Source: a virus
Lineage: Duplodnaviria > Heunggongvirae > Uroviricota > Caudoviricetes
Strand: one strand, 5' to 3'
IMG/VR virus record: IMGVR_UViG_3300025389_000018
DNA: 64,000 nt
A program made the translations under genes and the position numbers. Shown here piece after piece: positions 1,529 to 54,413 of the stretch; position 1 is the first letter of the stretch; the number at the start of each line of letters is the position of its first letter. The notes beneath the pieces were generated by a model. It did no database searches, was not told the origin of the DNA, and saw only the letters and a list, made by a program, of their open reading frames with translations.

Positions 1529-1580
1529 ACTAATCTTCTCAGGGGCCGAGGTAGGCTCTAATCGCACTCTTTTAGAAGGA

Positions 1581-5867: not shown

Positions 5868-6503
5868 TTATTTACTTGTTGCTACCTTGTTATGAGTAGG
5901 CTTAGTTAGGTTCATAGAACGTGGCTTTGCATAGTCTGCGTTCATTGTTTCCCCCTTATGTGTGAGGCTTACCGAACTCTTTGCTGTAGTTTGGTAAGGA
6001 TATTTTGACATGTAGTACTGGACTATAGGTTGGTTTGTACCTTTCCAATCATCCCAATTCTTCCCGCCATCGCTCATCTTGTAAGCAACTGTGGCGTTAA
6101 CAATAGGGTCGAACAACTGGTTGTTAGACTTTAGCCCGTAATAGGCACGTCTAGCAGGACCGAGTTCTCCAATCATGTTGATTTGGAATAGTCCGTAGGA
6201 GTGGTCTCCTGTGTACACATTTCCGTTGTAGTCTAAAGGACGACCTTGAGACTCTTTCTTTGCTATTGCCCATGCTTCTTTTAGGTGCTTTCCCTTAAAC
6301 CCAACTACCTTTAGTAGTTGAACAAGGCGTGTGTCAGAGAGGTATTTAACTCCTGCAAATGACTTGACCATAAGTGCGTGGGCTGGTTCGGGGGCTATTG
6401 CTGGCGTTGCTATTCCAAGTCCGATTACAAAAGCGAAAATCGGGCTTGTGAACATTGACGCTAGAACAACCTTTCCTCTTGTTGTTAGTTTCATAGTTAT
6501 CAC
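5868..6503 (-). CDS. Lytic transglycosylase (SLT/lysozyme-like domain) with N-terminal TM/signal
   Basis: Carries the KKESQG catalytic-Glu motif and GLFQIN, with a hydrophobic N-terminus. Confidence 0.65.
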   Translation of the reverse strand: MITMKLTTRGKVVLASMFTSPIFAFVIGLGIATPAIAPEPAHALMVKSFAGVKYLSDTRLVQLLKVVGFKGKHLKEAWAIAKKESQGRPLDYNGNVYTGDHSYGLFQINMIGELGPARRAYYGLKSNNQLFDPIVNATVAYKMSDGGKNWDDWKGTNQPIVQYYMSKYPYQTTAKSSVSLTHKGETMNADYAKPRSMNLTKPTHNKVATSK

Positions 6504-9315: not shown

Positions 9316-9555
9316 TTAATTTTCCCATAGTAAGTTTTCTAGTATTAAATCTCTTTCTCTTTCTATAAGCCAATCTTCTGCCGCTTTTTGTGCTTCTGCC
9401 TTTGTTCTGTATCTGTAATCATCTCCGTCTATGAAGTTGTCACTCTCGAAGTATTGCCATGCCCAGTTGCCTTCGCCATTTTTGTACACCCATACATCTT
9501 CTTTAGGAGAGGCATAGACACTTAGTCCATTTAGTTCTTTCTTATGAAACTTCAA
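9316..9555 (-). CDS. Hypothetical protein ending ...ENLLWEN (LW-tail family member)
   Basis: Its C-terminal LLWEN resembles the tails of the 21-23 kb cluster. Confidence 0.5.
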   Translation of the reverse strand: MKFHKKELNGLSVYASPKEDVWVYKNGEGNWAWQYFESDNFIDGDDYRYRTKAEAQKAAEDWLIERERDLILENLLWEN

Positions 9556-12456: not shown

Positions 12457-12600
12457 TTATTGTTCCCATAACTGGTTCTCAATTAGTTCTAGTTCAATTT
12501 CCATAGCGTTTACCCAGTCATGGCTTTCGACAGTGCATACTTCGCACATTCCATCTATTAGGTTACGTGTAACCTTTCCGCACATATAGCACTTAGACAT
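12457..12600 (-). CDS. Small zinc-ribbon protein (CYMCG...CEVC) ending ...ENQLWEQ (LW-tail family; not in ORF track)
   Basis: ATG at 12600 preceded by TAAGGAGCAAT. It encodes 47 aa. Confidence 0.4.
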   Translation of the reverse strand: MSKCYMCGKVTRNLIDGMCEVCTVESHDWVNAMEIELELIENQLWEQ

Positions 12601-13880: not shown

Positions 13881-15896
13881 TTATGAATTGGCTACTAGGT
13901 TTCGTGCGATTGCAATTCGTACAAGTTCCCGACCCAATATCGTGATGTCTTTTGCAGACTTGATTTGTGTCAGTAACTCAAACGAGTGGCGATAGTGTTC
14001 GAGATGTTGAGCAGAGATAGTTCCTTGCTCTAAGTAGGCTTGGCAAGTTAGAACGCCAGCATTACGCATTTCCGTAACTGCTTGCTCTCCTTCTTTTGAG
14101 TCCCACATTCCATCCGTAATCATAAATAGAATACGGATTGGCTTATCGGTTTCAGCGAGAACACGTTTCGCGTAGAGAATTGCTTCGTGAGGATTGGTTC
14201 CCCCGTCAGCACCAGCGTCACGAATTGAATTTCCAGCCTTATCCTCAGCACTGTAAAGAAGTGTCGTGTCATAATCGAATAAGCAGACAGTTGTTCGGGC
14301 TTCGACTTCTTCAAGTGCCTTCTTAATTGCCCACATACTTTGATATGCCATGTCTGCATTATTTCCTGCCATTGAACCCGACTTATCTAGCAAGATAACG
14401 GCTTCAATAGAAGTTACATCAGAACGACCTTCTTGCCATTCATCGAAACAAGTATCGAAATCCTCATTATTGAGATAACGATTGACATTCAAGCGACCTG
14501 TATCAACTTCTGACTCCCATGCAGGGTCAAACTTTGCGCGTAAGCGTTCGAGTTCACGACCAAACGCTTTAGAAGTTAGCACCAGTTCAGGATTAGCAGG
14601 TACTTCTCTGTGTCGGGCTTTAATTGGCGTAGTTACATTTCCGCCATTTAATCCAACATCAACACCCATCTGCTTTGCGATTTGATTTATCTCTTTAGAT
14701 AACTCGCGCAAGGCTTCATCCATAATGCCATCAAGTATTTGTGATACCTGTTGATTAGTGCCTGTTGTACCTTTATCTGTTCCTATTCCCTTTGCAGGAT
14801 TGGATGGAGAAGGTTCAAGGTCTAAGTCAATCTCTTCGTCATAGTCCCATTCCTCATCTTCCTCATCAAACGGCGATGGTGTAGTGCTGTCAGGATTTTT
14901 TACTGCGGATTTATCTTCTTTAGAAGTTTCCTCAGTTACATCTCCCTCAGTTACATCGCCATCAGTTGTATCAGTTGTATCTTCATCAGTTGCAGGAGAG
15001 AGTTCTATATCTACAACAAGAACGGGCTTTGGATTGTCCTTGCTCTTACTCCTTCCTAAGTCGCTCTCTTGCTGTGCGCGACTAACTGGTCGGACACTAC
15101 TGCTATCTACCCCTTGTGTTGGGCGAGTGCTATGACCCATAGGGTCACTAATGCGAACTATAACTGTCTGACCACCTTGACCATTACTACTGCTCTGTGT
15201 CGGTGCTAACTGCTTTATCAACTCGTCTAACTCTTTGATAAGTACCTTCGCTCTTTCCGTTGCTGTTCGTACTTCTTCAATAGAACCTACGAATATCAGT
15301 TGTCGGTATTCATCAACGATGTTATAGATTGCTTCTACATCTTGTGGTCGTTGGTAGTTATCAACTGCTAACTGTTGGATTTCAGTAGGCAGATACCTAC
15401 GACCAGTAATAAGAGGAAACGCTGTTGGTAGTGCTTCCTCGTTTTTAATGATGTAGTTAGTAACTACGGCTGTTAGCCACTTAGCAATACTTGGCAAGTA
15501 ACCGACTAACAAGGTTTCGATTCGGTTGTCCTCTAGCACGTTAAACGTATTCCATAGGTCATTCTGTTGTACCCATGCTATGAAAGGCGTACCAGTTCTA
15601 GGCGTATAGCGGAGATGTCCTAACTCATGGAAATCAAGTCCTTGCAGTTCCAAGATAGTTTCAGCAGTAATCTCGTCATGCAACTCAGCCAAGTTAAGCC
15701 ACATTTGCGTACTGCTTGACCATGCAGGAGATTCGATTAAAGGTTCATCTACTACACTTACCGAGATTTTTCGACCTGTCAAAACACTATTAGTGCGAGC
15801 GAATACACTCGCAAGTTTAGTGATGTGACTGCGCTTTAATTGCTGTAGTTCTTTTGCTTTGTCCTCTTGGCTTTGCTCTTTAATGAACGCTCTCAT
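13881..15896 (-). CDS. von Willebrand factor A domain protein (CobT-like partner of the MoxR ATPase)
   Basis: vWA MIDAS motif ILLDKSGSM near the C-terminus, with an acidic low-complexity linker (TDEDTTDTTDGDVTEGDVTEE). It sits adjacent to the AAA+ gene. Confidence 0.8.
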   Translation of the reverse strand: MRAFIKEQSQEDKAKELQQLKRSHITKLASVFARTNSVLTGRKISVSVVDEPLIESPAWSSSTQMWLNLAELHDEITAETILELQGLDFHELGHLRYTPRTGTPFIAWVQQNDLWNTFNVLEDNRIETLLVGYLPSIAKWLTAVVTNYIIKNEEALPTAFPLITGRRYLPTEIQQLAVDNYQRPQDVEAIYNIVDEYRQLIFVGSIEEVRTATERAKVLIKELDELIKQLAPTQSSSNGQGGQTVIVRISDPMGHSTRPTQGVDSSSVRPVSRAQQESDLGRSKSKDNPKPVLVVDIELSPATDEDTTDTTDGDVTEGDVTEETSKEDKSAVKNPDSTTPSPFDEEDEEWDYDEEIDLDLEPSPSNPAKGIGTDKGTTGTNQQVSQILDGIMDEALRELSKEINQIAKQMGVDVGLNGGNVTTPIKARHREVPANPELVLTSKAFGRELERLRAKFDPAWESEVDTGRLNVNRYLNNEDFDTCFDEWQEGRSDVTSIEAVILLDKSGSMAGNNADMAYQSMWAIKKALEEVEARTTVCLFDYDTTLLYSAEDKAGNSIRDAGADGGTNPHEAILYAKRVLAETDKPIRILFMITDGMWDSKEGEQAVTEMRNAGVLTCQAYLEQGTISAQHLEHYRHSFELLTQIKSAKDITILGRELVRIAIARNLVANS

Positions 15897-15909: not shown

Positions 15910-17250
15910 TTAGTTTATGTCAGAAGTAACTGGTGATTGAAACTCTTGCTCTAGTTGCAAACGGTGTGCCTCAAACAGCAGGCGAACACTTGCGCGTTCT
16001 TCATCGTTAAAGTTCATCAACGCATTTTCCAATGCAAACTCAAACCCAAGTTCGTGAGCGAGTTCTTGGAAGTTCTTTAGCCAGCGTAATGAGATAGGCG
16101 TTGTATAAGTTCCCTTGATACTGTCTGCTCTCATGTCGTTAGCAATTTTCAGAAGTGTTGGTGACTTAATGATTTTCTTTTCGATAGTTGGGTCGTACTC
16201 AAACTTCAATTTGATACCGAAACGGTCTAGGAAGGCTTCATTCAACTTATTGCTTCCTCGGTATCCGTTGTTATATGTAGCGACCACCATGAAGTCAGGA
16301 TGTGCAGGTACTACTTCGCCACCATTCTCAATGATTGAGAGAGTGCGGTTTTGTAGTAAATCTTGAAGTCGTTGCAGGATTTTGGTAGGAGCGAAATCAA
16401 CTTCATCTAGGATAACAATGTCTCCACGCTTTACTGCTTGCGTGAGAACGCCATCTATCCAAACTGGCTTGCCAGTTTCAGAGTCAATGATTGTTTTACC
16501 AATAAACTGCCCAACTTCAATTCCCATCGAACAGGAGAACACATAAACGCCTTGACCTTCTTTATGCCCGAAGTTAAGTGCGCTAGTTGTTTTTCCTGTA
16601 CCAGCATGACCTTCGATAAGTACGAATTTCTTTAGTCGCTTAGCAGTTGAGAACATCTTGTGTTCAGTAACACCGCCAGCGAAAGTACGCTCAATGTAAT
16701 CTCCTACAAGTTCTTTAGAAGGAATACGGATTACATAACGACCAATGACTTCATCATCTAATTCCTCATAGCGTGGGGCTTGCGAAACTTCGATAGTGTC
16801 GTTGATTACTAGCGGATTTTTTACTGCGGTGGCACTCTTGTCACTTCTGCCATCACTACGGTATTTCGCTAGGGATTGTGGGTCTTGCTCTATCATGTCG
16901 TGTACCTCTTTCAGTAGTTCGGTTAGTGTTCGGTTGCTTGCTTCTTTATGGCGTAAGCCGTACTGCTTTGTTAGTTTTTGGATTAAAACATTTGGGCGTT
17001 GATTCTTTTGTAAAGAATATATGTCGTTATCAGTAAGTGGTGTAGAGAGAACCTCACCGACAATAACGTGTTCATCATGGATGGCGATTACTTCATCATA
17101 ATCAGAGTCAGTCCATGCGTTAGTCTCCCCACGTCCCCCATTAGTAGTGCGAGTCCATGCGTAGTTCTTACCTTCGTGAGTTGCTAGTAGTACCTGTCGA
17201 ACGGTATCTACTGTGTCGGTCTGCGCTGTGATTAGGATTGCTTGTGACAT
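15910..17250 (-). CDS. AAA+ ATPase, MoxR/CobS-like, with ~190-aa N-terminal extension
   Basis: Walker A IEGHAGTGKTT and Walker B IVILDEVDFAP. It pairs with the vWA gene. Confidence 0.8.
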   Translation of the reverse strand: MSQAILITAQTDTVDTVRQVLLATHEGKNYAWTRTTNGGRGETNAWTDSDYDEVIAIHDEHVIVGEVLSTPLTDNDIYSLQKNQRPNVLIQKLTKQYGLRHKEASNRTLTELLKEVHDMIEQDPQSLAKYRSDGRSDKSATAVKNPLVINDTIEVSQAPRYEELDDEVIGRYVIRIPSKELVGDYIERTFAGGVTEHKMFSTAKRLKKFVLIEGHAGTGKTTSALNFGHKEGQGVYVFSCSMGIEVGQFIGKTIIDSETGKPVWIDGVLTQAVKRGDIVILDEVDFAPTKILQRLQDLLQNRTLSIIENGGEVVPAHPDFMVVATYNNGYRGSNKLNEAFLDRFGIKLKFEYDPTIEKKIIKSPTLLKIANDMRADSIKGTYTTPISLRWLKNFQELAHELGFEFALENALMNFNDEERASVRLLFEAHRLQLEQEFQSPVTSDIN

Positions 17251-20992: not shown

Positions 20993-21298
20993 ATGAGCTT
21001 ACTTCCACCTGTAGTGGCTGTACTAGATGAGAAATTTAATCTTGGAATACCTGGCTCTTATGACGAGTGGTACAAGATAACTACGGATGTACTTAATGAG
21101 CCAAACGGGTACGTAGTGTGGCACTACCCGCCAGAAGATAAAGGCATGGGGAAGCCGTACAACACCTTCACTCTCTTACCAGGAATGGTAATGAGACTTG
21201 GAATGGGGACACTCCATCGGGAGGTAGTCTTCCGCCGTGGGTTTCCACTGGGGAAAGTGGTAACTTTAGAAGAAGAAGAAACTCTTTGGAACTCATAG
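20993..21298 (+). CDS. Small hypothetical protein ending ...EEEETLWNS (LW-tail family)
   Basis: First gene of the rightward early array. Confidence 0.5.
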   Translation: MSLLPPVVAVLDEKFNLGIPGSYDEWYKITTDVLNEPNGYVVWHYPPEDKGMGKPYNTFTLLPGMVMRLGMGTLHREVVFRRGFPLGKVVTLEEEETLWNS

Positions 21299-21310: not shown

Positions 21311-21697
21311 ATGAACTCAAATTACAACGCACTACAGGGGTATAACGTAGTCACCTCTAATTCTTACATTAACTCTCCGCGCACTAGAAGAGTTATAGAA
21401 GTTACGTTAGATGAAGAGTTTGAAATACCGCAATACGGATTCTTTGTCCTTCAACTTTTGGTGGAGGAAGATGCGCACTACACACTCTCGCTTGTACAAC
21501 TCGCCGTCAATGTGCCTGCAGCAACACAAAAAGGCTCTTTTAATCTTGGTGTGTTTCCTGATGCCAAAGTTCTCTCTTGCTCAAGAATTCCAAAAGGGGT
21601 AGATAAGTACACCTTTTACATATGGGAGAACGCGATTGTATGTGACGTAAGTAGGTCGTCCTATGACACCTACGAAGGGATGTTGTGGCAGCAATGA
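21311..21697 (+). CDS. Small hypothetical protein ending CDVSRSSYDTYEGMLWQQ (LW-tail family, CD[LV][TS]xS subfamily)
   Basis: RBS GAAGGGGG. Confidence 0.5.
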   Translation: MNSNYNALQGYNVVTSNSYINSPRTRRVIEVTLDEEFEIPQYGFFVLQLLVEEDAHYTLSLVQLAVNVPAATQKGSFNLGVFPDAKVLSCSRIPKGVDKYTFYIWENAIVCDVSRSSYDTYEGMLWQQ

Positions 21698-21957
21698 GCC
21701 AATATAACCAAATGACAGTAAAGCTAGACGAGCCTTTTATTGTAGGTGTCTATACATGCACATTCAAGCTTCGTTACAAGCCAGATAATAAGAAAGCTCT
21801 CATATTAACAGTTATGCCAGATAAGCGGACTAGGTTCTGCTCACCAAAAAAAGATGCCACAACATACACAGTTGAAGTTAATGGGCAGCTTGTCACATGT
21901 GATTTAACCCAATCTGCAAATGATGACATAGATGCTCCATTATGGGATGTGATGTAA
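21694..21957 (+). CDS. Small hypothetical protein ending TCDLTQSANDDIDAPLWDVM (paralog of neighbours)
   Basis: ATGA overlap with the upstream stop. The ORF-track start at 21685 is GTG. Confidence 0.5.
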   Translation: MSQYNQMTVKLDEPFIVGVYTCTFKLRYKPDNKKALILTVMPDKRTRFCSPKKDATTYTVEVNGQLVTCDLTQSANDDIDAPLWDVM

Positions 21958-22256
21958 TGGCTATCTCAACCTACCAATACTCTTCTAGCTCTAGCTATTG
22001 GATAGAAAAAGATGTTCTTTTAGACCAGGGGTTTGATTTTGCTGGAGATAATGGACTCTATGTTTTCTCCAAAACAGTCTCTAATGACGGCACCACTGGT
22101 TTGAGGCTAGAAAACCTTCGTACCAAAAAAGTGGAGCTATATTCCATAACTAGAGACTCGGAGTTCTATGTGCTCCGTATAGGGTCTCATGCAGTTAGAT
22201 GCGACCTTACAAAGTCCACCTATGACAAATCAGAGAAAATTTTGTGGGAGTCATAA
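21957..22256 (+). CDS. Small hypothetical protein ending RCDLTKSTYDKSEKILWES (paralog)
   Basis: TAATG overlap. The ORF-track start is 21942. Confidence 0.5.
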   Translation: MAISTYQYSSSSSYWIEKDVLLDQGFDFAGDNGLYVFSKTVSNDGTTGLRLENLRTKKVELYSITRDSEFYVLRIGSHAVRCDLTKSTYDKSEKILWES

Positions 22257-22258
22257 AG

Positions 22259-22432
22259 ATGTGCTATGGTATATATACAAAGGCGGGAAGCTTCGAAAAC
22301 GGAAAACCTTTGTCGTCCTTGGGCCACGACGTAAAACTTGCTGACAGAGAAGTCTCCATGGGGTTCACTAAGTTGAAGCGAAATGGGGACTTCTCTTCTC
22401 ATTACCGAGAAAAAGGAATAGGTAATGATTGA
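22259..22432 (+). CDS. Small hypothetical protein (57 aa)
   Basis: GGGAG RBS 8 nt upstream of the ATG. Confidence 0.35.
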   Translation: MCYGIYTKAGSFENGKPLSSLGHDVKLADREVSMGFTKLKRNGDFSSHYREKGIGND

Positions 22433-22688
22433 CAATCCCGCGTTAGAACGACCCAATGTAAGTCTAAACGTATTGGAGTCTGGTCAGGTAGGACCGTTGT
22501 TCCACCATGTTTTTGCCTCTACTGGAACTATTCTCACTGCCTATAGTGCAGCAGAGTTCAGAGAACAACTCATGTACGAAGGACGGAAGTTAGCAGAAGC
22601 ATTTCAGGAGTGCTCAAGGCTACTGCTTGACCTGGAGTTAGAGAGGTCAGAAGAAGACCGGTTAGATGAAAAGTTATGGGAATCATGA
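22425..22688 (+). CDS. Small hypothetical protein ending ...RLDEKLWES (LW-tail family)
   Basis: RBS AGGAATAGG. Confidence 0.5.
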   Translation: MIDNPALERPNVSLNVLESGQVGPLFHHVFASTGTILTAYSAAEFREQLMYEGRKLAEAFQECSRLLLDLELERSEEDRLDEKLWES

Positions 22689-22704: not shown

Positions 22705-23046
22705 ATGAGGTTATTTGATGTACTAGACATTGTCAGCGCTATCGTGAGTTACATAGGTGTTGGAGCTATAGTCTTTAAGGAAACATTCCCAAAACGAGTG
22801 GCTTACCACAAGAGTAAGTTTAGATATCTAAAATGTGAAGATTACACAGCTGAATTCATCATTGAGTCAACAGTAGTTGCAGCATTCTGGCCTTTGGTTC
22901 TACCTGCAATTGGTGTTAAAAAAGCCTGGAAGTATCTAGGAAAAGTCCCAACAAAAAAGTTTAATCAATGGGCAGATAGTATCTACAACCCAGAATCCTC
23001 ATTAACCCAAGACGAGATGAACGAAAGGCTCCTCTGGTCAAGCTAG
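22705..23046 (+). CDS. Small membrane-associated hypothetical protein ending ...NERLLWSS (LW-tail family)
   Basis: RBS GGGAGGAAA, with hydrophobic segments. Confidence 0.5.
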   Translation: MRLFDVLDIVSAIVSYIGVGAIVFKETFPKRVAYHKSKFRYLKCEDYTAEFIIESTVVAAFWPLVLPAIGVKKAWKYLGKVPTKKFNQWADSIYNPESSLTQDEMNERLLWSS

Positions 23047-29252: not shown

Positions 29253-29417
29253 ATGAAATGCGATATTTGTTCTGAGAAGTCTGAAGACTTCCTTTTTGTA
29301 GTAGAAGAGTCCGATACGTTCAGTACTCCTACTAACTTCGAGTACTGCTGTGTACTCTGTGAAGATTGTGTAGAGGAGTTTGGCGGAATCCACATGATTG
29401 ACTACTATGTCAGCTAA
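29253..29417 (+). CDS. Small zinc-ribbon protein (CDICS...CVLCEDC; not in ORF track)
   Basis: GGAGATAG RBS. It encodes 54 aa. Confidence 0.4.
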   Translation: MKCDICSEKSEDFLFVVEESDTFSTPTNFEYCCVLCEDCVEEFGGIHMIDYYVS

Positions 29418-29757
29418 TACTTGCTCTCCTGGGAGTGTTCCTAATCCCTTAAACATTTCCCCCTACTACTTGAACCCAACTATCAACAACCCTTCTGTAT
29501 GGCATACAGGAGGAGGCGGTACCCCCACAAGCCCTGTAGGGGCAGGAGGAAGGGGTGGTCTCGTAACTACTACGACTAGCACTACTCCTTACACTGGGTA
29601 CGTCTACCCAAATACACCCACTATAACTACCTCTCCCAACACACTTTACCCAGTTACTAGCCCTATAACTAACGGATTCGACGTGAACGATGCCATGCGT
29701 ATAGCCAGAGAACAGATGGAAATTATTTTGGAAGAAGAAAAGCTGTGGAACAGCTAA
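29407..29757 (+). CDS. Thr/Pro-rich small protein ending ...EEEKLWNS (LW-tail family)
   Basis: Start refined to an internal ATG. Confidence 0.45.
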   Translation: MSANTCSPGSVPNPLNISPYYLNPTINNPSVWHTGGGGTPTSPVGAGGRGGLVTTTTSTTPYTGYVYPNTPTITTSPNTLYPVTSPITNGFDVNDAMRIAREQMEIILEEEKLWNS

Positions 29758-29915
29758 CTACACCGACACAGGGGCACAACATCCCTAATTGGGCTGTTAC
29801 CTCCTCGGAAGAATGTCTCCTACACCAAGTACGTGAAGCGACGGATAAACTCCGTATCTCCATTAGGGAAGACAAGGAAGACAAGCTCCTTGAACAGGAA
29901 CTGTGGAATAGTTAA
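29745..29915 (+). CDS. Possible small protein ending ...EQELWNS (LW-tail family; GTG start overlapping the previous LWNS codons)
   Basis: The open frame has no ATG. The GTG is preceded by GGAAGAAGAAAAG. Confidence 0.3.
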   Translation: MEQLTTPTQGHNIPNWAVTSSEECLLHQVREATDKLRISIREDKEDKLLEQELWNS

Positions 29916-30242: not shown

Positions 30243-30460
30243 GTGCAGAGGATAACCTAGGGCTACAATGGCGTGGTACACGCACTACCGTAGGAACTAT
30301 CCATTCAATGTCTGCTACTCCTTACAATTACATCGCTCCAGTATGGCACGATAACAAGAAGCAGTGGAAAGTAATGGGAGGCTTAGGAGATGGCACTATC
30401 CACCCCACTTTGCGAGATGCCAAACAGCATGTTGAAAGCCTGCATAGGAGAAGTCAATGA
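30239..30460 (+). CDS. Small hypothetical protein
   Basis: ATGA overlap. Confidence 0.4.
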   Translation: MSAEDNLGLQWRGTRTTVGTIHSMSATPYNYIAPVWHDNKKQWKVMGGLGDGTIHPTLRDAKQHVESLHRRSQ

Positions 30461-30729
30461 CCCTGCCATCCAAGAAGAAAAAAGTGTACGGGCCGTACAA
30501 AGATAAGAACAAGGGCGGGCGTACAATGATGGTGGAGTATGACCCTAAGACTCAGAAGACTACCTCTACTCATGAAGCCCGTTACAAGAAAGAAAAATCT
30601 CTTGGGCGCAAACTTGGTAAAGATGAGCATGTTGACCATAAGGACAACAACAAGCACAACAACGGTTCGAAGAACCTTCAAGTGATGAAGGCATCGAAGA
30701 ATATCGGCAAAGGAAATAAGCACCGCTGA
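30457..30729 (+). CDS. Small HNH-motif nuclease-like protein
   Basis: EHVDHKDNNKHNNGSKNLQVM resembles the HNH core. Confidence 0.45.
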   Translation: MTLPSKKKKVYGPYKDKNKGGRTMMVEYDPKTQKTTSTHEARYKKEKSLGRKLGKDEHVDHKDNNKHNNGSKNLQVMKASKNIGKGNKHR

Positions 30730-31552: not shown

Positions 31553-31605
31553 TCCCAGAAATCTGATACCCTTCTCAGGACAGTGAACCATCTTTAGGAG
31601 GAATC

Positions 31606-32181
31606 TTGACCACAATCGCAGCAGTGCAAGGCGACGGATGGGTCGTAATGGGTGCAGACACCCAGGGGACCTATAACGAATACCGCAAAATTTTCATGAA
31701 AGATGACAAGGTCGTAGAAAATAACGGCATTCTAATTGCTGGTTGCGGTATTGGACGAGGCATGAATCTCCTACAGCGTGGCTGGAAAGCCCCTAAGCCT
31801 CGCACCAAGTTGAGTCCAGAGAAGTTAGATAATTGGATGGTCAACACCTTCCTGCCCCAGATGAGAGACGTATTCATCAAGGGCGGTTATGACATGAAGG
31901 ATGACGGAGACTATGCCAAGTACGAGAACGTCTTCCTAGTCGCTGTTCAAGGCCATGTATACATAATTGATGAGGACTACTCTATTGACAGGGACGCCAG
32001 AAACTATGTAACGTCTGGCAGTGGAGGAGACTTCGCACAAGGTTCCCTTTATAACCATGGACCTAAGCTATTTACTGACCTTGAGTTTGCGAAAGAAGCA
32101 ATGAAGATGGCTGTAGATGCAGCTAAAGAGTTTGACAGCAACTCAGGTGGAGAAACAAGAATTTACGTACAACTAGCCTAA
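31606..32181 (+). CDS. HslV-like Ntn-hydrolase peptidase (proteasome beta-subunit fold), TTG start
   Basis: N-terminal (M)[21 protein letters not shown] aligns to E. coli HslV [32 protein letters not shown] motif corresponds to HslV GSGGPYA. AGGAGG RBS. Confidence 0.7.
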   Translation: [191 protein letters not shown]

Positions 32182-32664: not shown

Positions 32665-33175
32665 TTTCTAACACGAAATCCTTAACTGGGTGAAGTTGGT
32701 CTTGAGATACATACACATTTCCATCCTTTGTGGGAATAGCAATTTTACGTGCTTCCGCAACAGGAATTGCCCCCAACAAGTAAACAGTGTTCTCTTCGTC
32801 AGTATCCACACACCCAAGTACTGCGACTTTGTGGTGTGCATCTGTGTCTCGAATCGTTAGCTCTCCTTTAAGAGAACGACAGCGACGGACCTCAAAATGA
32901 GGCTCAACATCTGGCATATCCTTGTGTTCACTGTGGGTGGACAAATCCCAGTCTTCACTGTTCCAACGAGTTCCAAAATACTTTGAGACAGCCATCTCTA
33001 CTAAGCACCCTTTTATATCTCCTTGAAAAGCAGTGTCATAGGCTACAAATCTGTGGGTGGAAAATCTCTCTCCTGTTACAGGGTCCCTGTGTCTCCACTG
33101 TCGCTTAATGCCTGCAGTGTAGGCGCGAATCATTTCTTCTTGAGTAAGCTTAATTACTTCCATATTCTTCTCCAA
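32657..33175 (-). CDS. Hypothetical protein
   Basis: Operon context. Confidence 0.5.
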   Translation of the reverse strand: MEKNMEVIKLTQEEMIRAYTAGIKRQWRHRDPVTGERFSTHRFVAYDTAFQGDIKGCLVEMAVSKYFGTRWNSEDWDLSTHSEHKDMPDVEPHFEVRRCRSLKGELTIRDTDAHHKVAVLGCVDTDEENTVYLLGAIPVAEARKIAIPTKDGNVYVSQDQLHPVKDFVLENA

Positions 33176-33710
33176 TCGGTATCCCGTTTTTGTACTTCCA
33201 TCTCCAGCTATTTTGATGCTCAGCAGTTATACGCCGATGACAGTTGGCGCAACGAACTTCTCCCTTTTTGAACTCATCTTTTATTTTTTCTATTGGAATA
33301 ACGTTTCGTATAGCTGTATTTAAGTCAAACTCTTTGCCTGTTACGTGGTCGAACTCTAACACCAAGAGGTCTGTTTCTCCGCAATCCACACACGGATTGG
33401 CAGCATAAAAGTCTGCCAATAGCATCCTTATCTCATTTTTTCTTGCATTACGGGTTCCATAAACACCCTCTAAAAGGTCTTCTCTACGGCCTTCATAATT
33501 ACTTCTCTGGTATTCCCCTTGACAAGGTTTACAGTAAGGCTGGACGCTGGAGAGAGTCCCAGAGTTTCTTTTTTTATTGAACTCAGTTAAGGGTTTTTCT
33601 TTTTTGCATCTGTTGCAGACCTTCATCAGACACCTCTCCATTGACATAGCTTTCCAAATGCTTATGCTCACAATACCTTGCCAGAGAGGGAACCACAAAT
33701 AGAGTCCCAC
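33150..33710 (-). CDS. HNH endonuclease with N-terminal zinc finger
   Basis: CVDCGETDLLVLEFDHV...CANCHRRITAEH. Confidence 0.55.
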   Translation of the reverse strand: MGLYLWFPLWQGIVSISIWKAMSMERCLMKVCNRCKKEKPLTEFNKKRNSGTLSSVQPYCKPCQGEYQRSNYEGRREDLLEGVYGTRNARKNEIRMLLADFYAANPCVDCGETDLLVLEFDHVTGKEFDLNTAIRNVIPIEKIKDEFKKGEVRCANCHRRITAEHQNSWRWKYKNGIPIGEEYGSN

Positions 33711-41176: not shown

Positions 41177-43513
41177 ATGGAAAACTACGACGAAGAAAAA
41201 TTTGAAGAGATAAATCCTGACTTTTATCTCCAGGATGAAGAACCTGTTGTAGAAGAGCAGGAAGAAGAGTTAGATGAGCTTTCTCAACAATTTGTAAATA
41301 AACTCATCGAAAAAATTATGGACTTTTTAGTAGTCCTTGTTGGGCACGATTTACACCCTTACCAAAAACCTTTAGCTAGACGGATAATTGAGTCCGTAAT
41401 CATCAATGATGGTGAAGAAATAACTGCTCTTGCATCTCGTCAGTCAGGTAAATCTGAAACAGTAGCTGATGTCGTAGCAACATTGATGGTTCTTTTACCT
41501 CGGCTTGCAAAGCTGTATCCAGACCTTCTTGGAAAATTTAAAGATGGGTTATGGGTAGGACTCTTTGCTCCTACAGAATCACAGGCCGAAACTCTGTTCG
41601 GGAGAGCAGTGACTCGTCTTACGTCTGAGCGTGCTATTGAAATCATGGATGACCCAGAGATTGACGATAGCACAGCTCGTGTGGGTGGAGTTACTCGGCA
41701 GATTAAGCTTAAAAAATCAGGCTCTACTATCACTATGATGACTGCTAACCCTCGTGCAAAGATTGAATCTAAGTCGTTCCACTTGGTAGTTATTGATGAG
41801 TGCCAAGAAGCGGATGACTTCGTAGTATCCAAATCAATCTCTCCTATGTTGGCTTACTACGCAGGAACGATGGTAAAAACAGGTACACCAACAACAAGCA
41901 AAAACAACTTTTACAGAAGTATTCAACTCAACCGTCGTCGTCAAACTGGGCGTAATTCACGGCAAAATCATTTCCAATGGGACTGGAAAGAAGTCGCGAA
42001 AGTCCAACCTAATTACGAAAAATTTATTCGAAAAGAGATGCTTCGTATCGGTGAAGATTCCGATGAATTTCAGATGTCGTACAACTGCCTTGTTCCAACT
42101 ACTAAAGTCCTTACTTCAGACCTTCAGTATGTGGAGATTGGGTCTGTAAAAGTTGGAGATACTCTCGTAGGATTCGACGAAGAACCAACTACTAAAGGTG
42201 CTCATAGAAAAATACGGAAAACAACTGTAACTAAAGCGGAGCGCATACTTCGTCCTACTTACAATATAGCCCTGTCAGACGGCACAGTTGTGGGCTCATC
42301 AGATGGACATTTATGGCTAGTATCAACAGCTGGTCGTAGAACAGTGTGGAAACGCACAGACGAGCTACTTACTACAGACCGTATTTTTAAAATATTAGAT
42401 ACTTGGGAGAGTGCAGAAGATTATAGAACAGGGTATCTAGCGGCTGCATTTGATGGGGAGGGGCACTTCTCTCGTCAAGCAATGCTCGGATTCTCTCAGA
42501 GAGATAATGTCATGCTTTCAAAGGTAAGGAAGTATCTGACTGAGTTGGGATTTAAGTATTGGGAACGGCATGACACAGGTACTAATGGCGATGTAACTGT
42601 TCTCCATATAGCAGGCGGACGTGCGAGCATGTCTAGATTCTTGGGACAAATACGTCCAGAACGATTACTTAAGAAAGTGAACTTGGATGAGTTCGGGTCT
42701 ATAGGCCGTCATGATTTCGTCGGACAAGACTTTGAACACCCTCTAGTTGTTTCAGTGGAGTATGTTGGTGAGCAAGAGGTTGTAGCTCTTGAAACAACGA
42801 CGAAAACCTTTATCGCAGAAGGATTAGCTTCTCATAACTGCAAATGGTTGTTAGAAAGAGGTATGTTCGTCACTTCTACAGTCATGGATGAGTTAGGAGA
42901 CACTTCGCAAGAGGTCGTAAGAGCATGGCATAAAACTCCCGTAGTAGTGGGAATTGACCCAGCTCGTAAGACTGACTCAACAGTAGTCACTGTTGTTTGG
43001 GTTGACTGGGATAGGCCAGACGAGTTCGGCTACTTCGACCATCGAGTGTTGAACTGGTTGGAACTTCAAGGAGAAGATTGGGAAGAACAATACTTTCAGA
43101 TTGTAAACTTCTTAGAGAATTATGACGTGCTTGCTATAGGGGTAGATGCTAACGGTGTAGGAGACGCAGTAGCCCAACGTCTAAAGCTTCTAATGCCTCG
43201 CGCTGAAGTAACTGCTCTTACCTCCAGTCCATCAGAACAATCGAAGAGGTGGAAACACTTACAGGCATTGATTCAGAGAAAAATGATTAGTTGGCCTGCA
43301 CATGCAAAGGTTCGCAGAGGAAGAACTTTTAGGCGTTTTTATCAGCAGATGACGGATGCCGAAGTTACGTTTAAAGGCCCTAACTACATGGTTGCAGCCC
43401 CCGATGAAGCCCATGCCCACGATGACTTTGTGGATTCACTCTCTATTGCTTGCAGCCTTACCCAGAACCTTGTTATGCCGGAAGTAGTTGCTTCTAGTAA
43501 TCCCTTCTTTTAA
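41177..43513 (+). CDS. Terminase large subunit (ATPase + nuclease) interrupted by an intein
   Basis: Walker A ASRQSGKSE and Walker B HLVVIDECQEADD. The host protein remains in frame around the intein. Confidence 0.8.
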   Translation: MENYDEEKFEEINPDFYLQDEEPVVEEQEEELDELSQQFVNKLIEKIMDFLVVLVGHDLHPYQKPLARRIIESVIINDGEEITALASRQSGKSETVADVVATLMVLLPRLAKLYPDLLGKFKDGLWVGLFAPTESQAETLFGRAVTRLTSERAIEIMDDPEIDDSTARVGGVTRQIKLKKSGSTITMMTANPRAKIESKSFHLVVIDECQEADDFVVSKSISPMLAYYAGTMVKTGTPTTSKNNFYRSIQLNRRRQTGRNSRQNHFQWDWKEVAKVQPNYEKFIRKEMLRIGEDSDEFQMSYNCLVPTTKVLTSDLQYVEIGSVKVGDTLVGFDEEPTTKGAHRKIRKTTVTKAERILRPTYNIALSDGTVVGSSDGHLWLVSTAGRRTVWKRTDELLTTDRIFKILDTWESAEDYRTGYLAAAFDGEGHFSRQAMLGFSQRDNVMLSKVRKYLTELGFKYWERHDTGTNGDVTVLHIAGGRASMSRFLGQIRPERLLKKVNLDEFGSIGRHDFVGQDFEHPLVVSVEYVGEQEVVALETTTKTFIAEGLASHNCKWLLERGMFVTSTVMDELGDTSQEVVRAWHKTPVVVGIDPARKTDSTVVTVVWVDWDRPDEFGYFDHRVLNWLELQGEDWEEQYFQIVNFLENYDVLAIGVDANGVGDAVAQRLKLLMPRAEVTALTSSPSEQSKRWKHLQALIQRKMISWPAHAKVRRGRTFRRFYQQMTDAEVTFKGPNYMVAAPDEAHAHDDFVDSLSIACSLTQNLVMPEVVASSNPFF
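42086..42838 (+). mobile_element. Intein (Hint domain with LAGLIDADG homing-endonuclease motif) within the terminase large subunit
   Basis: N-terminal splice junction YN|CLVPTT, LAGLIDADG-like GYLAAAFDGEGHF, and C-terminal ...LASHN|C (His-Asn plus +1 Cys). Confidence 0.7.
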
Positions 43514-44635: not shown

Positions 44636-46180
44636 ATGCAAATTGCGGTAAATTACTACCGTGCATTCAATGACTTTTTAGCACGCTTTACCTTTGGTAA
44701 AGGCGTGCACTTCCGTTCCCCTAAAGCAACTGAAGCTATTGTCCCTGACCGCTTAGAGCGTGTATGGGAAGTAGATAATGACAAGATGCGTGTGCTACTT
44801 GAGATGGCACAACAAGGTGGAATTACTGGCGACGTGTTCGTAAAGGTCGCGTATGAAGAGCCTTGGGACGATTCCGCAGGTGGCTTCCACCCAGGTCGTG
44901 TTCGTATTCTTCCTATGAACTCCTCCTTTTGTTTCCCTGAGTTTCACCCACATGACCGTACACGGTTACTGAGATTTAAACAGAAATATCGTTTCTGGGG
45001 CACATCTTTAGAGGGTACACGACAGGTATTTACTTACACTGAAATCCTTACTGACGATGTTATCGAAGAGTACATCAACGATGAGCTCATTGATTCACGG
45101 CCTAATCCACTAGGTGTAATCCCTGTAGTTCACATTCCTAACGTACCTGTATCAGGTTCCCCATGGGGACTTGCAGATGCTCATGACATCATCACCATTA
45201 ACCGTGCTTACAACGAAATCTCAACAGATGTAGCAGACATTATTAACTACCACGCTTCCCCTGTGACAGTTATTATCGGTGCTAAAGCATCTAACCTTGA
45301 AAAAGGCGCAAAGAAAGTTTGGGGCGGTCTTCCAAAAGACTCTCAGGTTTTCAACCTTGAAGGAGGAGCGTCAGGAATTGATGGAGCTCTAAAGTACTTA
45401 GAACTCTTAAAGCGCTCAATGCACGAAATCATGAACATCCCAGAGACTGCTCTAGGACAAGTTCAGCCAATTTCAAACACGTCAGGTGTTGCGCTTTCTA
45501 TTCAGTATCAACCTTTGATGAATCGTTACAGCCAAAAGGTTGCTCAATACGGAAAAGGTATTGAGAAGATTAACGAACTGATTCTTCGTAACCTTGCTTT
45601 CAAAGAACCACAAACTTTCCTTTATAACCCAGAGAGTGATGGCCCAATCAAACCAGGCCAACTAACTCAGCTTGACCCTAATGACCCAATTACCTACATG
45701 AACTATGTTCAATTCCCTCCTCCATTGCCTTTGGATAAGCTGATTCTTCTTAACGAAATCCAGACTAAATTGGGAATGGGACTTGAGTCTAAGGAAGGCG
45801 CTCTCCGTACTCTTGGCGAGGAATTCCCAGAGGAGAAATTGGAAGAGATTCGCCAAGAGCTTATTGCTGATGCAACGGCTGATGGAGCTCTACAGTTAGT
45901 AAAGATTCAGATTCAGAAAGAAATCATGGATATGACAGGCATGATGCCTGGTCCAGATGGAAACTCTGCTATTCCTATAACTCCCCAGGAGTTAGGTGAC
46001 GGTGACGTACTGGGAGATGGAATTCAGGGACCTGAAAGTCCTGACAACATTGACAGCCCTGAAAACCAAGCGGCATCAATGATGGAAGACCAATCTGAGA
46101 ACTCACTTCGTGAGGCTCTACTAACCCAAGCTTACGGAACAAAGATTCCACAAAGAAGAACGGTAGAAAAAGATAACTAA
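44636..46180 (+). CDS. Portal protein
   Basis: A 514-aa ORF lying between the terminase and the scaffold/capsid genes. Confidence 0.65.
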   Translation: MQIAVNYYRAFNDFLARFTFGKGVHFRSPKATEAIVPDRLERVWEVDNDKMRVLLEMAQQGGITGDVFVKVAYEEPWDDSAGGFHPGRVRILPMNSSFCFPEFHPHDRTRLLRFKQKYRFWGTSLEGTRQVFTYTEILTDDVIEEYINDELIDSRPNPLGVIPVVHIPNVPVSGSPWGLADAHDIITINRAYNEISTDVADIINYHASPVTVIIGAKASNLEKGAKKVWGGLPKDSQVFNLEGGASGIDGALKYLELLKRSMHEIMNIPETALGQVQPISNTSGVALSIQYQPLMNRYSQKVAQYGKGIEKINELILRNLAFKEPQTFLYNPESDGPIKPGQLTQLDPNDPITYMNYVQFPPPLPLDKLILLNEIQTKLGMGLESKEGALRTLGEEFPEEKLEEIRQELIADATADGALQLVKIQIQKEIMDMTGMMPGPDGNSAIPITPQELGDGDVLGDGIQGPESPDNIDSPENQAASMMEDQSENSLREALLTQAYGTKIPQRRTVEKDN

Positions 46181-47113: not shown

Positions 47114-48238
47114 ATGGCAAGTGCAATTACAGGTACTGGACAACTCGCCAGTGCACCTACAGCTTACTCAGGCTCCAACTCAAGCCTGAACCAAGCAATT
47201 CAGACAATCTGGTCCAAGGAAATCTTGTTCCAGGCTATGCCAATCCTTCGCTTCGAACAGTTCGCTGTTAAGAAGACAGAACTCGGCGTTGCTCCAGGTC
47301 TCCGCGTTAACTTCTTGCGTTACAAGAACTTCGCAGTAGACCCAACACCTCTTACAGAAGGTGTTCGTATGACCACCAACGCTCTCACAGCAGAGCAAAT
47401 TGCAATCACAGTTGCAGAAAACGGTTATGCCGTTGCTGTTTCTGAGTTGCTCTTGAACGCTTCCTTCGATGACGTTATGGCTTCTGCTTCACGTCTTCTT
47501 GGTCGCCACATGGCTCAGTACCTCGATACACAGGCTCGTAACACTCTCTCTGCTGCAACATCAGCAGTGTTTGGTTATGACCGCTCAGGTATCCAGGGCA
47601 TCAACGACTGGTACGTAGAAGGTACAGTCGGAACTTCCATCTCAGGCTTGACAGGTAACTTCAAGCTGACCACAGGCGCTGTTAAGGATGCTGCGCTTAC
47701 CCTTGCTGGTAAGAACATCCCTCGCTTGGGCGAGACCTACGTACAATTCGTACACCCTAAGCAATCTCGTGACCTTCGTTCGAACCCAGAGTTCATCGAA
47801 GTAACGAAGTACGCTGCTCCAGGTAACTTCATGCTTGGTGAAATCGGACGTTTGTACGACGTAGTCTTCATCGAAACCACTCAGGTTAAGTCTTTCGCTT
47901 CTTCAAGCGTCATCGACTACACCTCTTCTGTCGGAACTGTTGCAGACCAAACCTCTGTCCCTGTAAAGGCTAACACTGGTCCAGGTCTTGGCGGTAACCC
48001 AGAAAACGCTGGTGCAACAGCTTATCCAAACGGTGGTTCAAGCAACACAACTGCTGCAACCGTTTATGAGTCCATCATGATTGGTGACAACGCTTTTGGT
48101 CACGCAATCTCTCTCCCAGTCGAACTTCGTGATGGTGGCGTTCTTGACTTCGGTCGTGAACACGCTCTTGCTTGGTACGCAATCTGGGGTCTCGGTGTAA
48201 TCACCGACCAATCTATCGTCAAGGTTTACACAAACTAA
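47114..48238 (+). CDS. Major capsid protein
   Basis: A 374-aa ORF after the scaffold, followed by a strong terminator. Confidence 0.6.
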   Translation: MASAITGTGQLASAPTAYSGSNSSLNQAIQTIWSKEILFQAMPILRFEQFAVKKTELGVAPGLRVNFLRYKNFAVDPTPLTEGVRMTTNALTAEQIAITVAENGYAVAVSELLLNASFDDVMASASRLLGRHMAQYLDTQARNTLSAATSAVFGYDRSGIQGINDWYVEGTVGTSISGLTGNFKLTTGAVKDAALTLAGKNIPRLGETYVQFVHPKQSRDLRSNPEFIEVTKYAAPGNFMLGEIGRLYDVVFIETTQVKSFASSSVIDYTSSVGTVADQTSVPVKANTGPGLGGNPENAGATAYPNGGSSNTTAATVYESIMIGDNAFGHAISLPVELRDGGVLDFGREHALAWYAIWGLGVITDQSIVKVYTN

Positions 48239-48818: not shown

Positions 48819-49868
48819 GTGGCTACAGTAAGTTCGTTAGCAGCCCGTTTAAGAACTGAATTAGGCGATATGGGCAAGTCTTTCGTCTATTCATTCATGG
48901 CAGACGGAACCACTAATAGATTTTTAATCCCTTATTCACCTCTTCAGGGGACTACCCTAGCTATTCATCAGAACTCTACTGATGTTTCCAGTTCAGTCGA
49001 AGTAGAGGAAGAGACTGGTTACATCACTTTTGACACTACCCCAACTGCAGGGGACAGCATTGTTGTAGCTGGGTTTTACTTTAGGTATTTTACGGATACT
49101 GAAATAAACACTTTTGTTTGCGATGCTTTTGCTCAACATACTCTGAATCACACTGACCCTTATGGTCGTACAGTTACCATAGAGAATTTACCACAGGTAG
49201 AAGAGTATCCAGTAGCAGTATACGCAGCTACTTTAGCGCTTTACACTCTCGCTACCGATTCTTCTTTTGATATTGATATCACAGCTCCAGACGGAGTAAT
49301 GATTCCTCGTTCTGAGCGGTATCGCCAACTAATGCTCATGGTTGATGCTAGAAAAGAACAATACCGTGAACTATGCTCACAGCTTGGTATTGGCCTTTAC
49401 AAGATTGACGTATTTTCTTTGCGCCGTATCTCAAAGACAACCAACCAATACGTGCCTATCTTTGTACCACAAGAAGTGGATGACATTTCCGCACCTCAAC
49501 GTGTTTTGTTGCCTATTCCAACCTATGGTGCTTCTCCTACTCCGTCTACAGTGCCAAACTACGACATAAGCATGTACCAAGGAGACTCGTTCTACATTGA
49601 GCTTGATTTTACATTTGATGTTACACAGTATGAATGGCGTTCAGACATCGTCGTACTACCTGGTTATGCAACTCCTCTTACTTCGTTCACCATTGCAACC
49701 GTATCAGGGTCAACTACAAAACTTGGTCTTTCTTTGACCAGTGACCAAACATCACTTCTGCCACAACGTTGTTACTGGGATATCCAAGCAAAGTCGGTGA
49801 CTGACTCAAGTTACGAGCAAACCTACATGAAGGGTATGGTCTTCGTAACAACACAGGTGACTGAATGA
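48819..49868 (+). CDS. Structural protein (tail/fibre-associated)
   Basis: Lies upstream of the fibre genes. Confidence 0.5.
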
Positions 49869-51109
49869 CAAACAGCCATCCTACTAATTGCGGCTGTTAT
49901 TCTTGCGGCTCTATAACTGTACAAGTACCTAACCCTATTGTTGTACAGGTAACTACTCCTACTGGAGCTCAAGGAGTACAGTCGCCTATCCAAGTTCTTC
50001 CTGGACAAGGAGGCGCAGTAGGTGCGCAGGGAACACAAGGTCTACAAGGCACAACTGGTGTACAAGGTATTCCTGGAGCACAAGGCACACAAGGTATTCA
50101 AGGTGTACAAGGCTCTGCAGGAGTTCAAGGCGCTGTTGGTACTCAAGGCACACAAGGCACACAAGGCACACAAGGTATTCAAGGTATTCAAGGTATTCAA
50201 GGTGTACAGGGTGCTCAAGGAATACAAGGTGTACAAGGAACTCAAGGTACGCAAGGCGTACAAGGCATCTCTGTCCAAGGAGTTCAAGGGACTCAAGGGA
50301 CTCAAGGGACCCAAGGCATTCAAGGTAATCAAGGACTGCAGGGTATTCAAGGAAACATTGGAGCTCAAGGAACTACAGGAACCACAGGAGCCCAAGGTAT
50401 TCAGGGTGTTCAAGGAAACCAAGGCACTACTGGTACACAAGGAAACACTGGCTTACAAGGTATTCAGGGCGTACAAGGTCTACAAGGTTTTAGAGGAATA
50501 GTAGTAGCCTCTACAGCTCCTTCAGACACTACTGTTCTTTGGGAAGATACCTCCTCAACTGCTTTTGGCCCAAGTCAAACAGTCCCTCTATATCAATTTC
50601 CAGTCAGGTCTGGAAACTATATGACTACCCCTGGGTATGCTGGGTCTGGTCTAACACAGGTATTGAATCAGTTATATTTCTACCCGATTTTTATTACTTC
50701 AACCACTACATTTAAAGCTTTAGCTCTTAACTGCAGTACTGCTCAAGCCTCTACCACAGTCCGAATGGGTATCTACAATAACAATGGGGTTGATTCTCCT
50801 TCTACCCTAATTTTAGACGCTGGAACCGTAGATACGTCAACTATTGGAAATAAGTCCATTACAATTAGTACTACCCTTACTCCAGGCATTTACTGGCTAT
50901 GCCATGTTTGGCAAGGGGGGTCTACCTCTCCTACTTTATTTGGCATCTCCTATACTCAAGCCCTTATCACTACCGCTAACCTTTCAAGCCCATCCTATTT
51001 AGGTTGGTATCAAACCTCCGTGACTGGAGCTTTACCTTCTACGGTGGGAACATTAACTGGAAACATTAACACTGGGCAAATTGGTGTAGCAAAGTTGCAG
51101 GCAAACTAA
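49865..51109 (+). CDS. Collagen-like repeat (G-x-Q triplets) fibre protein with C-terminal beta domain
   Basis: About 65 consecutive GxY triplets ([10 protein letters not shown]...). The C-terminal domain is homologous to that of 51210-54413. Confidence 0.7.
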
Positions 51110-51210
51110 TGATTACATACACACGCTACGGTATAGGAGGCTATGACCCCTCTAAGCCAAATAACAACATAGTTGAAGAGTACGAGATTCCAGATGAGGT
51201 GAGTGAGTAA
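51109..51210 (+). CDS. Tiny [33 protein letters not shown] (33 aa), paralog of 54413-54517
   Basis: TAATG overlaps both flanking fibre genes. Confidence 0.35.
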
Positions 51211-54200: not shown

Positions 54201-54413
54201 ACAGCAGCAACTACCAACACTTTTGCTGGTTTAGGTCTTGCTGCAGCTAACCAAGTCCCAGGGATGCCAGTCGTCTCGACACTTAACTTAAACAACGGAA
54301 CTTCTTGGGCTTACTCCCAGTCGGTTAACGCCACAAGTGGCTTTTCAACAGCAAGCTCGCTCAGCATAGTTTCTACAAGCATAGTTCCAATCGTTCAGGT
54401 AAGGGTACAGTAA
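51210..54413 (+). CDS. Large collagen-like repeat tail fibre protein (several GxQ blocks separated by beta-rich domains)
   Basis: A 1067-aa ORF with four collagen-like blocks and internal near-identical ~110-nt and ~60-nt DNA repeats. Confidence 0.75.

Follow-up and report, generated by a model that had tools for sequence, protein, structure and literature searches.

A predicted stand-alone N-terminal-threonine peptidase of the proteasome fold in a phage-borne family of uncultured freshwater actinophages

The viral record IMGVR_UViG_3300025389_000018 (Caudoviricetes) was analysed over one stretch of 64,000 nucleotides, hereafter called the window. An earlier sequence-only reading of this DNA had described an open reading frame (ORF) at 31606-32181 on the plus strand as an HslV-like, proteasome beta-type peptidase that lacks an adjacent HslU. 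The ORF exists as described, and its 191-residue product, hereafter the peptidase, is the subject of this study. The features of the gene are the following.

31596-31601, plus strand: Shine-Dalgarno sequence AGGAGG, read from the sequence, 4 nt ahead of the TTG start
31606-32181, plus strand: peptidase gene, starting at a TTG codon and ending with TAA at 32179-32181, predicted to encode a proteasome-fold N-terminal-threonine peptidase of 191 residues
31609-31614, plus strand: codons of Thr2-Thr3; Thr2 is the predicted nucleophile (Thr1 after removal of Met)
31657-31659, plus strand: Asp18, equivalent of proteasome Asp17 of the catalytic triad
31708-31710, plus strand: Lys35, equivalent of proteasome Lys33 of the catalytic triad
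31741-31749, plus strand: Gly46-Cys47-Gly48, in which Gly48 is the equivalent of the oxyanion-hole residue Gly47
31882-31929, plus strand: predicted acidic pore loop, residues 93-108, 16 residues between helix H2 and the next strand, invariant in the clade
32017-32028, plus strand: Gly138-Ser139-Gly140-Gly141 (GSGG loop), aligned with the GSGG of HslV and containing the presumed equivalent of proteasome Ser129
32134-32151, plus strand: Asp177 to Ser180-Gly181-Gly182, containing the presumed equivalents of proteasome Asp166 and Ser169

Upstream of the gene, an in-frame stop lies at 31564, and no ATG, GTG or TTG occurs between this stop and the TTG start, so that Thr-Thr stands right after the only possible initiator. 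At the sequence level, the predicted threonine nucleophile thus has the position from which it could come to lie at the mature N-terminus. Methionine aminopeptidase is able to remove a methionine that precedes threonine. By this specificity, the initiator methionine of the peptidase would be cleaved off, and the exposed threonine would provide both the nucleophile and the free amine, as in HslV. A scan for promoters and terminators near the gene returned signals at or under the shuffle expectation.

Conservation was assessed in an alignment of 29 clade members (A1, 55-89% identity) and in a wider set of 48 sequences (A2, 23-69% identity). The results showed that Thr2, Thr3, Gly16, Lys35, Gly46-Cys47-Gly48, Gly138, Gly140, Gly141, Asp177 and Gly181-Gly182 are invariant across the 29 clade members, while Asp18, Ser139 and Ser180 are each kept in at least 90% of them. 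Each of Met1, Thr2, Asp18, Lys35 and Gly48 is present in at least 90% of the 48 sequences, and Gly138 and Gly140 are invariant there; the positions from Asp177 to Gly182 vary more here than in the clade. From the known numbering of the proteasome, we take Ser139, Asp177 and Ser180 to correspond to Ser129, Asp166 and Ser169. The triad Thr1/Asp17/Lys33 and the Gly47 oxyanion hole follow the definition of Fuchs, Alva and Lupas 2021 (PMC8665760). The conservation of this catalytic set despite strong divergence argues for activity; very probably, the protein is a catalytically active N-terminal-threonine peptidase that has no propeptide. Two further motifs, GYDMKDDGD and D-x-DYS-x-DR, are specific to the clade and invariant in its 29 members.

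Profile searches placed the protein in a peptidase family, the proteasome-like Ntn hydrolases (MEROPS T1 type). The peptidase matched Pfam PF00227 (Proteasome) with 25.9 bits against a gathering score of 22.4 (E 9.1e-6), a match that many of its close relatives carry in precomputed form, and PHROG 1040 ('peptidase HslV family') matched residues 1-187 with 90.2 bits (E 3.4e-25). The resemblance to the proteasome/HslV family is statistically real, beyond chance. The likeness of the N-terminus and the GSGG stretch to HslV, first seen by eye, was reproduced by a HMMER alignment of the family profile, in which the N-terminal 22 residues aligned with 22 residues of E. coli-type HslV and the stretch GSGGDFAQG aligned with HslV GSGGPYAQAA. 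When the family profile was compared by sequence with solved structures, HslV was the best match, with an E-value of only 5e-4. The NCBIfam HslV equivalog models scored 19.9 bits against a cut-off of 157.75 (TIGR03692) and 20.1 against 137 (NF003964), so that both cut-offs were missed by more than 115 bits; the 20S beta models scored 24.6 against 224 (archaeal) and 11.9 against 191.9 (bacterial). Because of the modest HslV profile match and the failed equivalog cut-offs, the fold can be read as proteasome beta type and no further than that towards HslV. Judged by these scores, the peptidase is not an HslV orthologue, and 'HslV' is its nearest label and not a family assignment. The proposed HslV-like identity thus stood as far as a proteasome beta-type N-terminal-threonine peptidase with the full conserved catalytic set is concerned, while orthology to HslV, at about 20 bits, did not.

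The best AlphaFold2 (AF2) model of the peptidase had a predicted local distance difference test score (pLDDT) of 85.9 and a predicted template modelling score (pTM) of 0.84, with the elements in the order alpha-beta-beta-alpha. As modelled, the protein forms an alpha-beta-beta-alpha sandwich with two pairs of flanking helices, including helices at 51-58 and 71-92, a coil at 93-108, a strand at 109-114 and a last strand at 181-190. A Foldseek search of the PDB with the model ranked HslV (4hnz, 1m4y) and BPH (5ovs, 5ovu) at the top, with E-values of 5e-10 to 2e-9 and TM-scores of 0.61-0.70, and 20S beta subunits followed close behind. Among viral models in BFVD, 37 shared the fold at E ≤1e-3, including proteins from phages of Gordonia, Vibrio, Caulobacter, Serratia, Erwinia and Pseudomonas; the best (TM 0.85) came from an uncultured Caudovirales phage and was already named HslV.

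In all 29 clade members, the loop formed by residues 93-108 has a length of exactly 16 residues and carries a net charge of -3 to -4, whereas the HslV segment that HMMER aligns with it has a charge of +2. In the wider peptidase family, the loop is net-negative in 85% of the sequences. HslV has a short stretch linking H2 to S7, with the basic residues Arg86, Arg89 and Lys90 at the mouth of the pore, and relies on HslU; BPH has a loop from H2 to the following strand that is elongated and very acidic, and no known unfoldase (PMC5777263). By sequence, the predicted pore loop of the peptidase is BPH-like in charge.

We consider it likely that the peptidase is a stand-alone, catalytically competent N-terminal-threonine peptidase that belongs to the compact 'group I' set (HslV, BPH, AAH, CPH and PPH) and to the phage-borne family PHROG 1040. 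After exposure of the threonine, the subunits would assemble into a double-ring barrel whose pore is lined by the invariant acidic 16-residue loop. Such a barrel may operate free of a dedicated ATPase, as proposed for BPH, and its substrates during infection may be peptides or unfolded or disordered proteins. The peptidase could also have a share in a loose phage toolkit for proteostasis and recycling, an idea weakly suggested by the Hsp20, thioredoxin and Cpn10 genes found near it in relatives. In a neighbourhood survey, ORFs were called and clustered in 84 peptidase loci; grouped at ≥80% identity, these loci form 25 lineages. In 7 of them, a gene for Hsp20 (Pfam E 2.8e-12) lay within 10 kb of the peptidase (locus L019, ORF 4, and nine further loci), and in one lineage a thioredoxin gene stood directly upstream and a Cpn10 (GroES) gene one or two genes downstream (L006, 5692-5988 and 6753-7076).

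Several points weigh against a stand-alone enzyme of this kind. The window spans 64 kb of a genome of about 99 kb, and an AAA+ partner could still come from the host. The Hsp20, thioredoxin and Cpn10 genes are all absent from the present window and occur in a minority of lineages elsewhere. The acidic loop aligns with the HslV segment in HMMER without a gap; it is no longer than that segment and differs from it in charge alone. The structure prediction covers the monomer only, the other four of the five AF2 models reached pLDDT 58-65, and residues 22-31 were poorly modelled. HslV is built from two hexameric rings as a dodecamer, and BPH as a tetradecameric double ring. A literature search found no biochemical or other experimental work on phage proteasome homologues, and BPH was inactive in standard assays (PMC5777263), so that activity without a partner is unproven even there.

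The peptidase was then compared with the known members of the superfamily. The survey of Fuchs, Alva and Lupas 2021 added 22 homologues of the proteasome to those already known; its group I is compact and occurs in bacteria and phages (PMC8665760). Like the group I homologues AAH, CPH and PPH, the peptidase is compact and phage-borne, has no propeptide, no large insertions and no additional C-terminal helix, and is not accompanied by an AAA+ protein. PPH, described as the first member that is truly viral, is about 140 residues long and is without helix H2 (PMC8665760), whereas the peptidase has 191 residues and a helix at 71-92, and so is not PPH. Compared by description, its modelled architecture is consistent with AAH or CPH, for which WP_035979212 and WP_008185288 are the respective reference sequences. 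AAH occurs in many phage genomes, yet no Actinobacteria-specific phage that encodes it was found by Fuchs et al. (PMC8665760), while the peptidase clade is abundant in predicted actinophages. BPH (PDB 5OVS, 5OVU) is 17-19% identical to the peptidase; its loop is markedly elongated and has five consecutive acidic residues, in contrast to a loop of 16 residues with D96, D99, D100 and D102 here, and BPH is cellular and mainly proteobacterial, whereas the peptidase family lies on phage contigs. Relative to HslV (ClpQ), the peptidase fails the equivalog cut-offs, has no HslU in the window and is acidic in the segment that aligns with the basic pore-lining region of HslV. It is shorter than the archaeal, actinobacterial (PrcB) and eukaryotic 20S beta subunits and lacks their propeptide and a gene for an alpha subunit. 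Anbu is 12% identical and has a long C-terminal helix H5 with coiled-coil contacts, while the peptidase ends after the strand 181-190. In connectase, the first helix pair is missing and two helices are inserted between S3 and S4 (PMC8665760); the peptidase has the helices and no long insertion. The observation adds a lineage and a host group to an existing catalogue and is not a new kind of system.

Relatives of the peptidase were collected from viral and cellular sequences. A word-indexed search gave 141 clusters at 90% identity, and the 120 listed were 56-90% identical to the peptidase, many of them on contigs of 90-115 kb; in IMG/VR, 157 relatives on viral contigs were confirmed. An exhaustive profile search of representative clusters gave 4,030 matches at E ≤1e-3, 844 at 1e-10 and 24 at 1e-30. 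Nearly all of the best 150 of these 4,030 matches had 180-200 residues, and most of the 150 aligned from residue 1. Every relative whose source was looked up came from a metagenome, and an identical protein was present on a 99 kb contig from a lake metagenome. The IMG pipeline names the relatives 'HslVU (ClpYQ) peptidase subunit' or '20S proteasome alpha/beta subunit'. In deposited phage genomes, the peptidase was at most 28-33% identical to any encoded protein. At the isolate level, relatives were found in a predicted actinophage, a Tenacibaculum (Bacteroidota) phage and a Moorella (Firmicutes) phage, which fits the phage-mediated spread described for AAH.

For cellular genomes, one genome per GTDB species was scanned. 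The first scan, with clade-specific patterns, gave no match, and the 48-sequence alignment held no stretch conserved enough to serve in a genome scan. The second scan gave only five relatives, all on short contigs binned into freshwater metagenome-assembled genomes (MAGs), which were labelled Ca. Nanopelagicaceae (L091), Saccharimonadales (L092), Actinomycetota (L093), Burkholderiaceae (L094) and Cyclobacteriaceae (L095). Because most of their other genes match IMG/VR viral loci, these are probably phage contigs that were binned with cellular genomes and not cellular copies, and the taxonomic labels of the MAGs are therefore unreliable as evidence of the host. As far as relatives of this similarity are concerned, the clade seems to be confined to phages. 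Among uncultured freshwater phages of Actinobacteria, members of the phage-borne family PHROG 1040 are abundant.

The window comes from a phage with a contractile tail, for which no close phage record was found at the DNA level. Besides the genes below, it encodes an endolysin and a ribonucleotide reductase.

41177-43513, plus strand: large terminase, 778 residues, with a Walker A motif
44636-46180: portal protein
47114-48238: major head protein
49865-51109 and 51210-54413, plus strand: two adjacent collagen-like tail fibre genes (414 and 1067 residues), of which several repeated stretches match families
61957-63513: tail sheath protein

The capsid protein is 60-63% identical to those of the Streptomyces myophages LuckySocke, Alone3 and BRock (112-116 kb), and the gene between portal and capsid encodes a protein with 38% identity to the scaffolding protein of LuckySocke (E 1e-31). 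A DUF7455 protein is encoded in the window, and WhiB is encoded on related contigs. Among deposited homologues of the peptidase, the closest is encoded by the metagenome-assembled Actinomycetia phage DSL-LC01, where it is annotated 'ATP-dependent protease subunit HslV' and stands directly upstream of a WhiB gene. On the basis of this sequence evidence, an actinobacterial host is well supported. The GC content of the window is about 44%, and a low-GC freshwater actinobacterium is a plausible host. For one freshwater group, Ca. Nanopelagicales, phage isolates now exist (PMC10202952).

We surveyed the window and the related loci for ATPase partners. No unfoldase of the Clp/HslU type was found in the window. 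Among ORFs of at least 80 residues in the window, a Walker A motif occurred only in the large terminase and in an AAA_5 gene, which lies beside a gene for a VWA-domain protein.

13881-15896, minus strand: 671-residue protein with a VWA domain, adjoining the AAA_5 gene
15910-17250, minus strand: AAA_5 ATPase (MoxR/CobS-type, PHROG 'porphyrin biosynthesis'), 14 kb from the peptidase and on the opposite strand

Scans of the flanking ORFs with Pfam, PHROGs and PADLOC found no ATPase either. Both earlier statements, that no HslU or ClpX gene is adjacent and that the gene at 15910 is the only AAA+ gene of the window, were confirmed; the Walker A survey adds only the large terminase. The missing HslU is no peculiarity of this phage. 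Among the novel proteasome homologues, none had a co-occurring AAA+ protein, which makes the absence of a partner the rule for all of them (PMC8665760), and HslV without HslU had been reported in 2020 for the Salmonella jumbo phage pSal-SNUABM-04 (PMC7823757). The AAA_5 and VWA genes form a CobS/CobT-like pair, as in many aquatic phages, and no link of this pair to the peptidase was found.

These results bear on the possibility that the peptidase is the proteolytic core of an AAA+ unfoldase other than HslU, whether host Mpa/ARC, Cpa, ClpX or ClpC1, or the AAA_5 protein of the phage (15910-17250). Self-compartmentalising proteases usually require an unfoldase (PMC5777263), and the phage does encode an AAA_5 ATPase beside a VWA protein. 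However, the gene for this ATPase lies on the opposite strand at a distance of 14 kb and is paired with VWA, which is the usual MoxR/CobS-CobT layout and not that of a protease partner; no ATPase recurs near the peptidase in the 25 lineages, and the survey of Fuchs et al. found no AAA+ protein co-occurring with any novel homologue (PMC8665760). We therefore regard such a partnership as unlikely.

The neighbourhood of the peptidase is variable. No neighbour is conserved across the 25 lineages, no cluster within five genes of the peptidase exceeds 7 lineages, and the immediate flanking genes differ in nearly all of them. In the window, the upstream 213-residue and downstream 98-residue neighbours had no Pfam, PHROG, PADLOC or PDB match, and the 213-residue protein shows no relation to the protein encoded upstream of the peptidase in lineage L005. 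PADLOC returned no match for the peptidase and three neighbours, and hence no sign of a defence system. Two HNH endonuclease genes flank the region.

30457-30729, plus strand: HNH endonuclease gene
33150-33710, minus strand: HNH endonuclease gene

These bracketing genes fit the mosaic, variable neighbourhood seen between lineages. In a separate subfamily (L071-L088), in which the peptidase is about 34% identical to the one studied here, a protein of about 80-95 residues (cluster 69) is encoded directly upstream in 12 loci (6 lineages) and is the most consistent neighbour inside that subfamily. It has no Pfam match, one example ends in RKDLWDGFES, and the clade to which the window belongs lacks it.

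A different proposal is that the protein is no general peptidase at all, and is instead a connectase-like ligase, a processing enzyme with a single substrate, or a catalytically silent structural protein. Proteasome homologues range in function as far as connectase, a monomeric protein ligase (PMC8665760), BPH is inactive on model substrates (PMC5777263), and the clade's own motifs GYDMKDDGD and D-x-DYS-x-DR could define a specific site. The complete catalytic set is conserved, contrary to what is expected of a silent protein, and the model, with its helices 51-58 and 71-92 and no long insertion, is unlike connectase. We judge this proposal quite improbable.

The protein could also be imagined as the prohead or virion maturation protease of the phage, since the window shows no recognised prohead protease, the gap between portal and capsid holds a scaffold gene, and in the 12 related loci (7 of 25 lineages) that show a homologue of the terminase, this gene begins 5.4-8.4 kb downstream of the peptidase. 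In the window, however, the peptidase gene is placed about 9 kb upstream of the terminase, amid small accessory and HNH genes and outside the portal-scaffold-capsid block, and its immediate neighbours change from lineage to lineage. In the Streptomyces phages that share a homologous head module, genes for portal, scaffold and capsid are present and no protease is annotated; these phages also gave no match to the peptidase. A maturation role was rejected on the position of the gene and this comparison, and we hold it to be very improbable.

Least probable of all is a true HslV that recruits host HslU into an ATP-dependent HslUV protease of phage-altered specificity, for which the best sequence match among solved structures (E 5e-4), the HslV label given to the family by automatic pipelines and the propeptide-less MTT start shared with HslV speak, and against which stand the 19.9-20.1 bits obtained where the equivalog cut-offs are 137-157.75, the acidic loop aligned with the basic pore cluster of HslV (Arg86, Arg89 and Lys90), and the inferred actinobacterial host, as Table 1 of Fuchs et al. 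2021 lists no HslV for Actinobacteria (PMC8665760).

Returning to the stand-alone peptidase, a far-reaching extension can be considered, which we regard as a long shot. Because Fuchs et al. found no actinophage carrying AAH, the clade might be the missing phage vector of the actinobacterial proteasome homologues. Its product would then be an ATPase-independent barrel whose invariant acidic pore loop selects basic or disordered host proteins (e.g., nucleoid-associated or ribosomal proteins), and which, together with the Hsp20, Cpn10 and thioredoxin of relatives, would remodel or recycle the proteome of genome-streamlined freshwater Actinobacteria during infection. No phage proteasome homologue has an experimentally known function. 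A large, strongly conserved clade in abundant freshwater actinophages is a reasonable model for why phages carry a threonine peptidase without a partner, and it can be used to ask whether group I proteasome homologues act without an unfoldase.

The small proteins of the window that end in an LW tail had been named as obvious candidate substrates of the peptidase. Ten small ORFs end in an acidic residue, any residue, Leu and Trp, followed in nine of the ten by two residues and the stop codon, where fewer than one would be predicted from the frequency of LW.

9316-9555 and 12457-12600, minus strand: LW-tailed ORFs
20993-21298, 21311-21697, 21685-21957, 21942-22256 and 22425-22688, plus strand: LW-tailed ORFs
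22705-23046, 29398-29757 and 29745-29915, plus strand: LW-tailed ORFs

Their endings include LWNS, LWES, LWQQ, LWSS, LWEN and LWEQ. In three of these ORFs, the start codon of an overlapping ORF downstream falls within the Leu-Trp codons. For most of the ten this is not so, which suggests that the motif acts at the protein level, and the tails look like a shared C-terminal peptide motif. Over all peptidase-bearing loci, LW stood at positions -4/-3 in 21 of 2,284 ORFs, compared with about 3 expected. In 34 of the 40 loci whose peptidase is less than 45% identical, no LW tail occurred within 10 kb. The tails are thus real and enriched, yet they do not accompany the peptidase in most of the distant lineages, and their role as its substrates is unsupported.

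Further features were seen in three genes of the window. Residues ~304-554 of the terminase form an insertion of about 250 residues relative to the 524-residue LuckySocke terminase, with flanks that are 49-52% identical. This insertion starts at SYN|CLVP, ends at SHN|CKW and holds the LAGLIDADG-like stretch LAAAFDGEGHF, which are hallmarks of an intein with a homing endonuclease. The other two genes lie at 1482-3026 (plus strand) and 6503-7834 (minus strand). One of them is queuine tRNA-ribosyltransferase-like (PHROG 887, E 8e-58) and may indicate 7-deazaguanine modification of the DNA. The other encodes 443 residues and has two separate stretches that match integrase PHROGs, together with a match to an HNH family; integrase-type matches are unexpected for a lytic-looking phage of about 99 kb.

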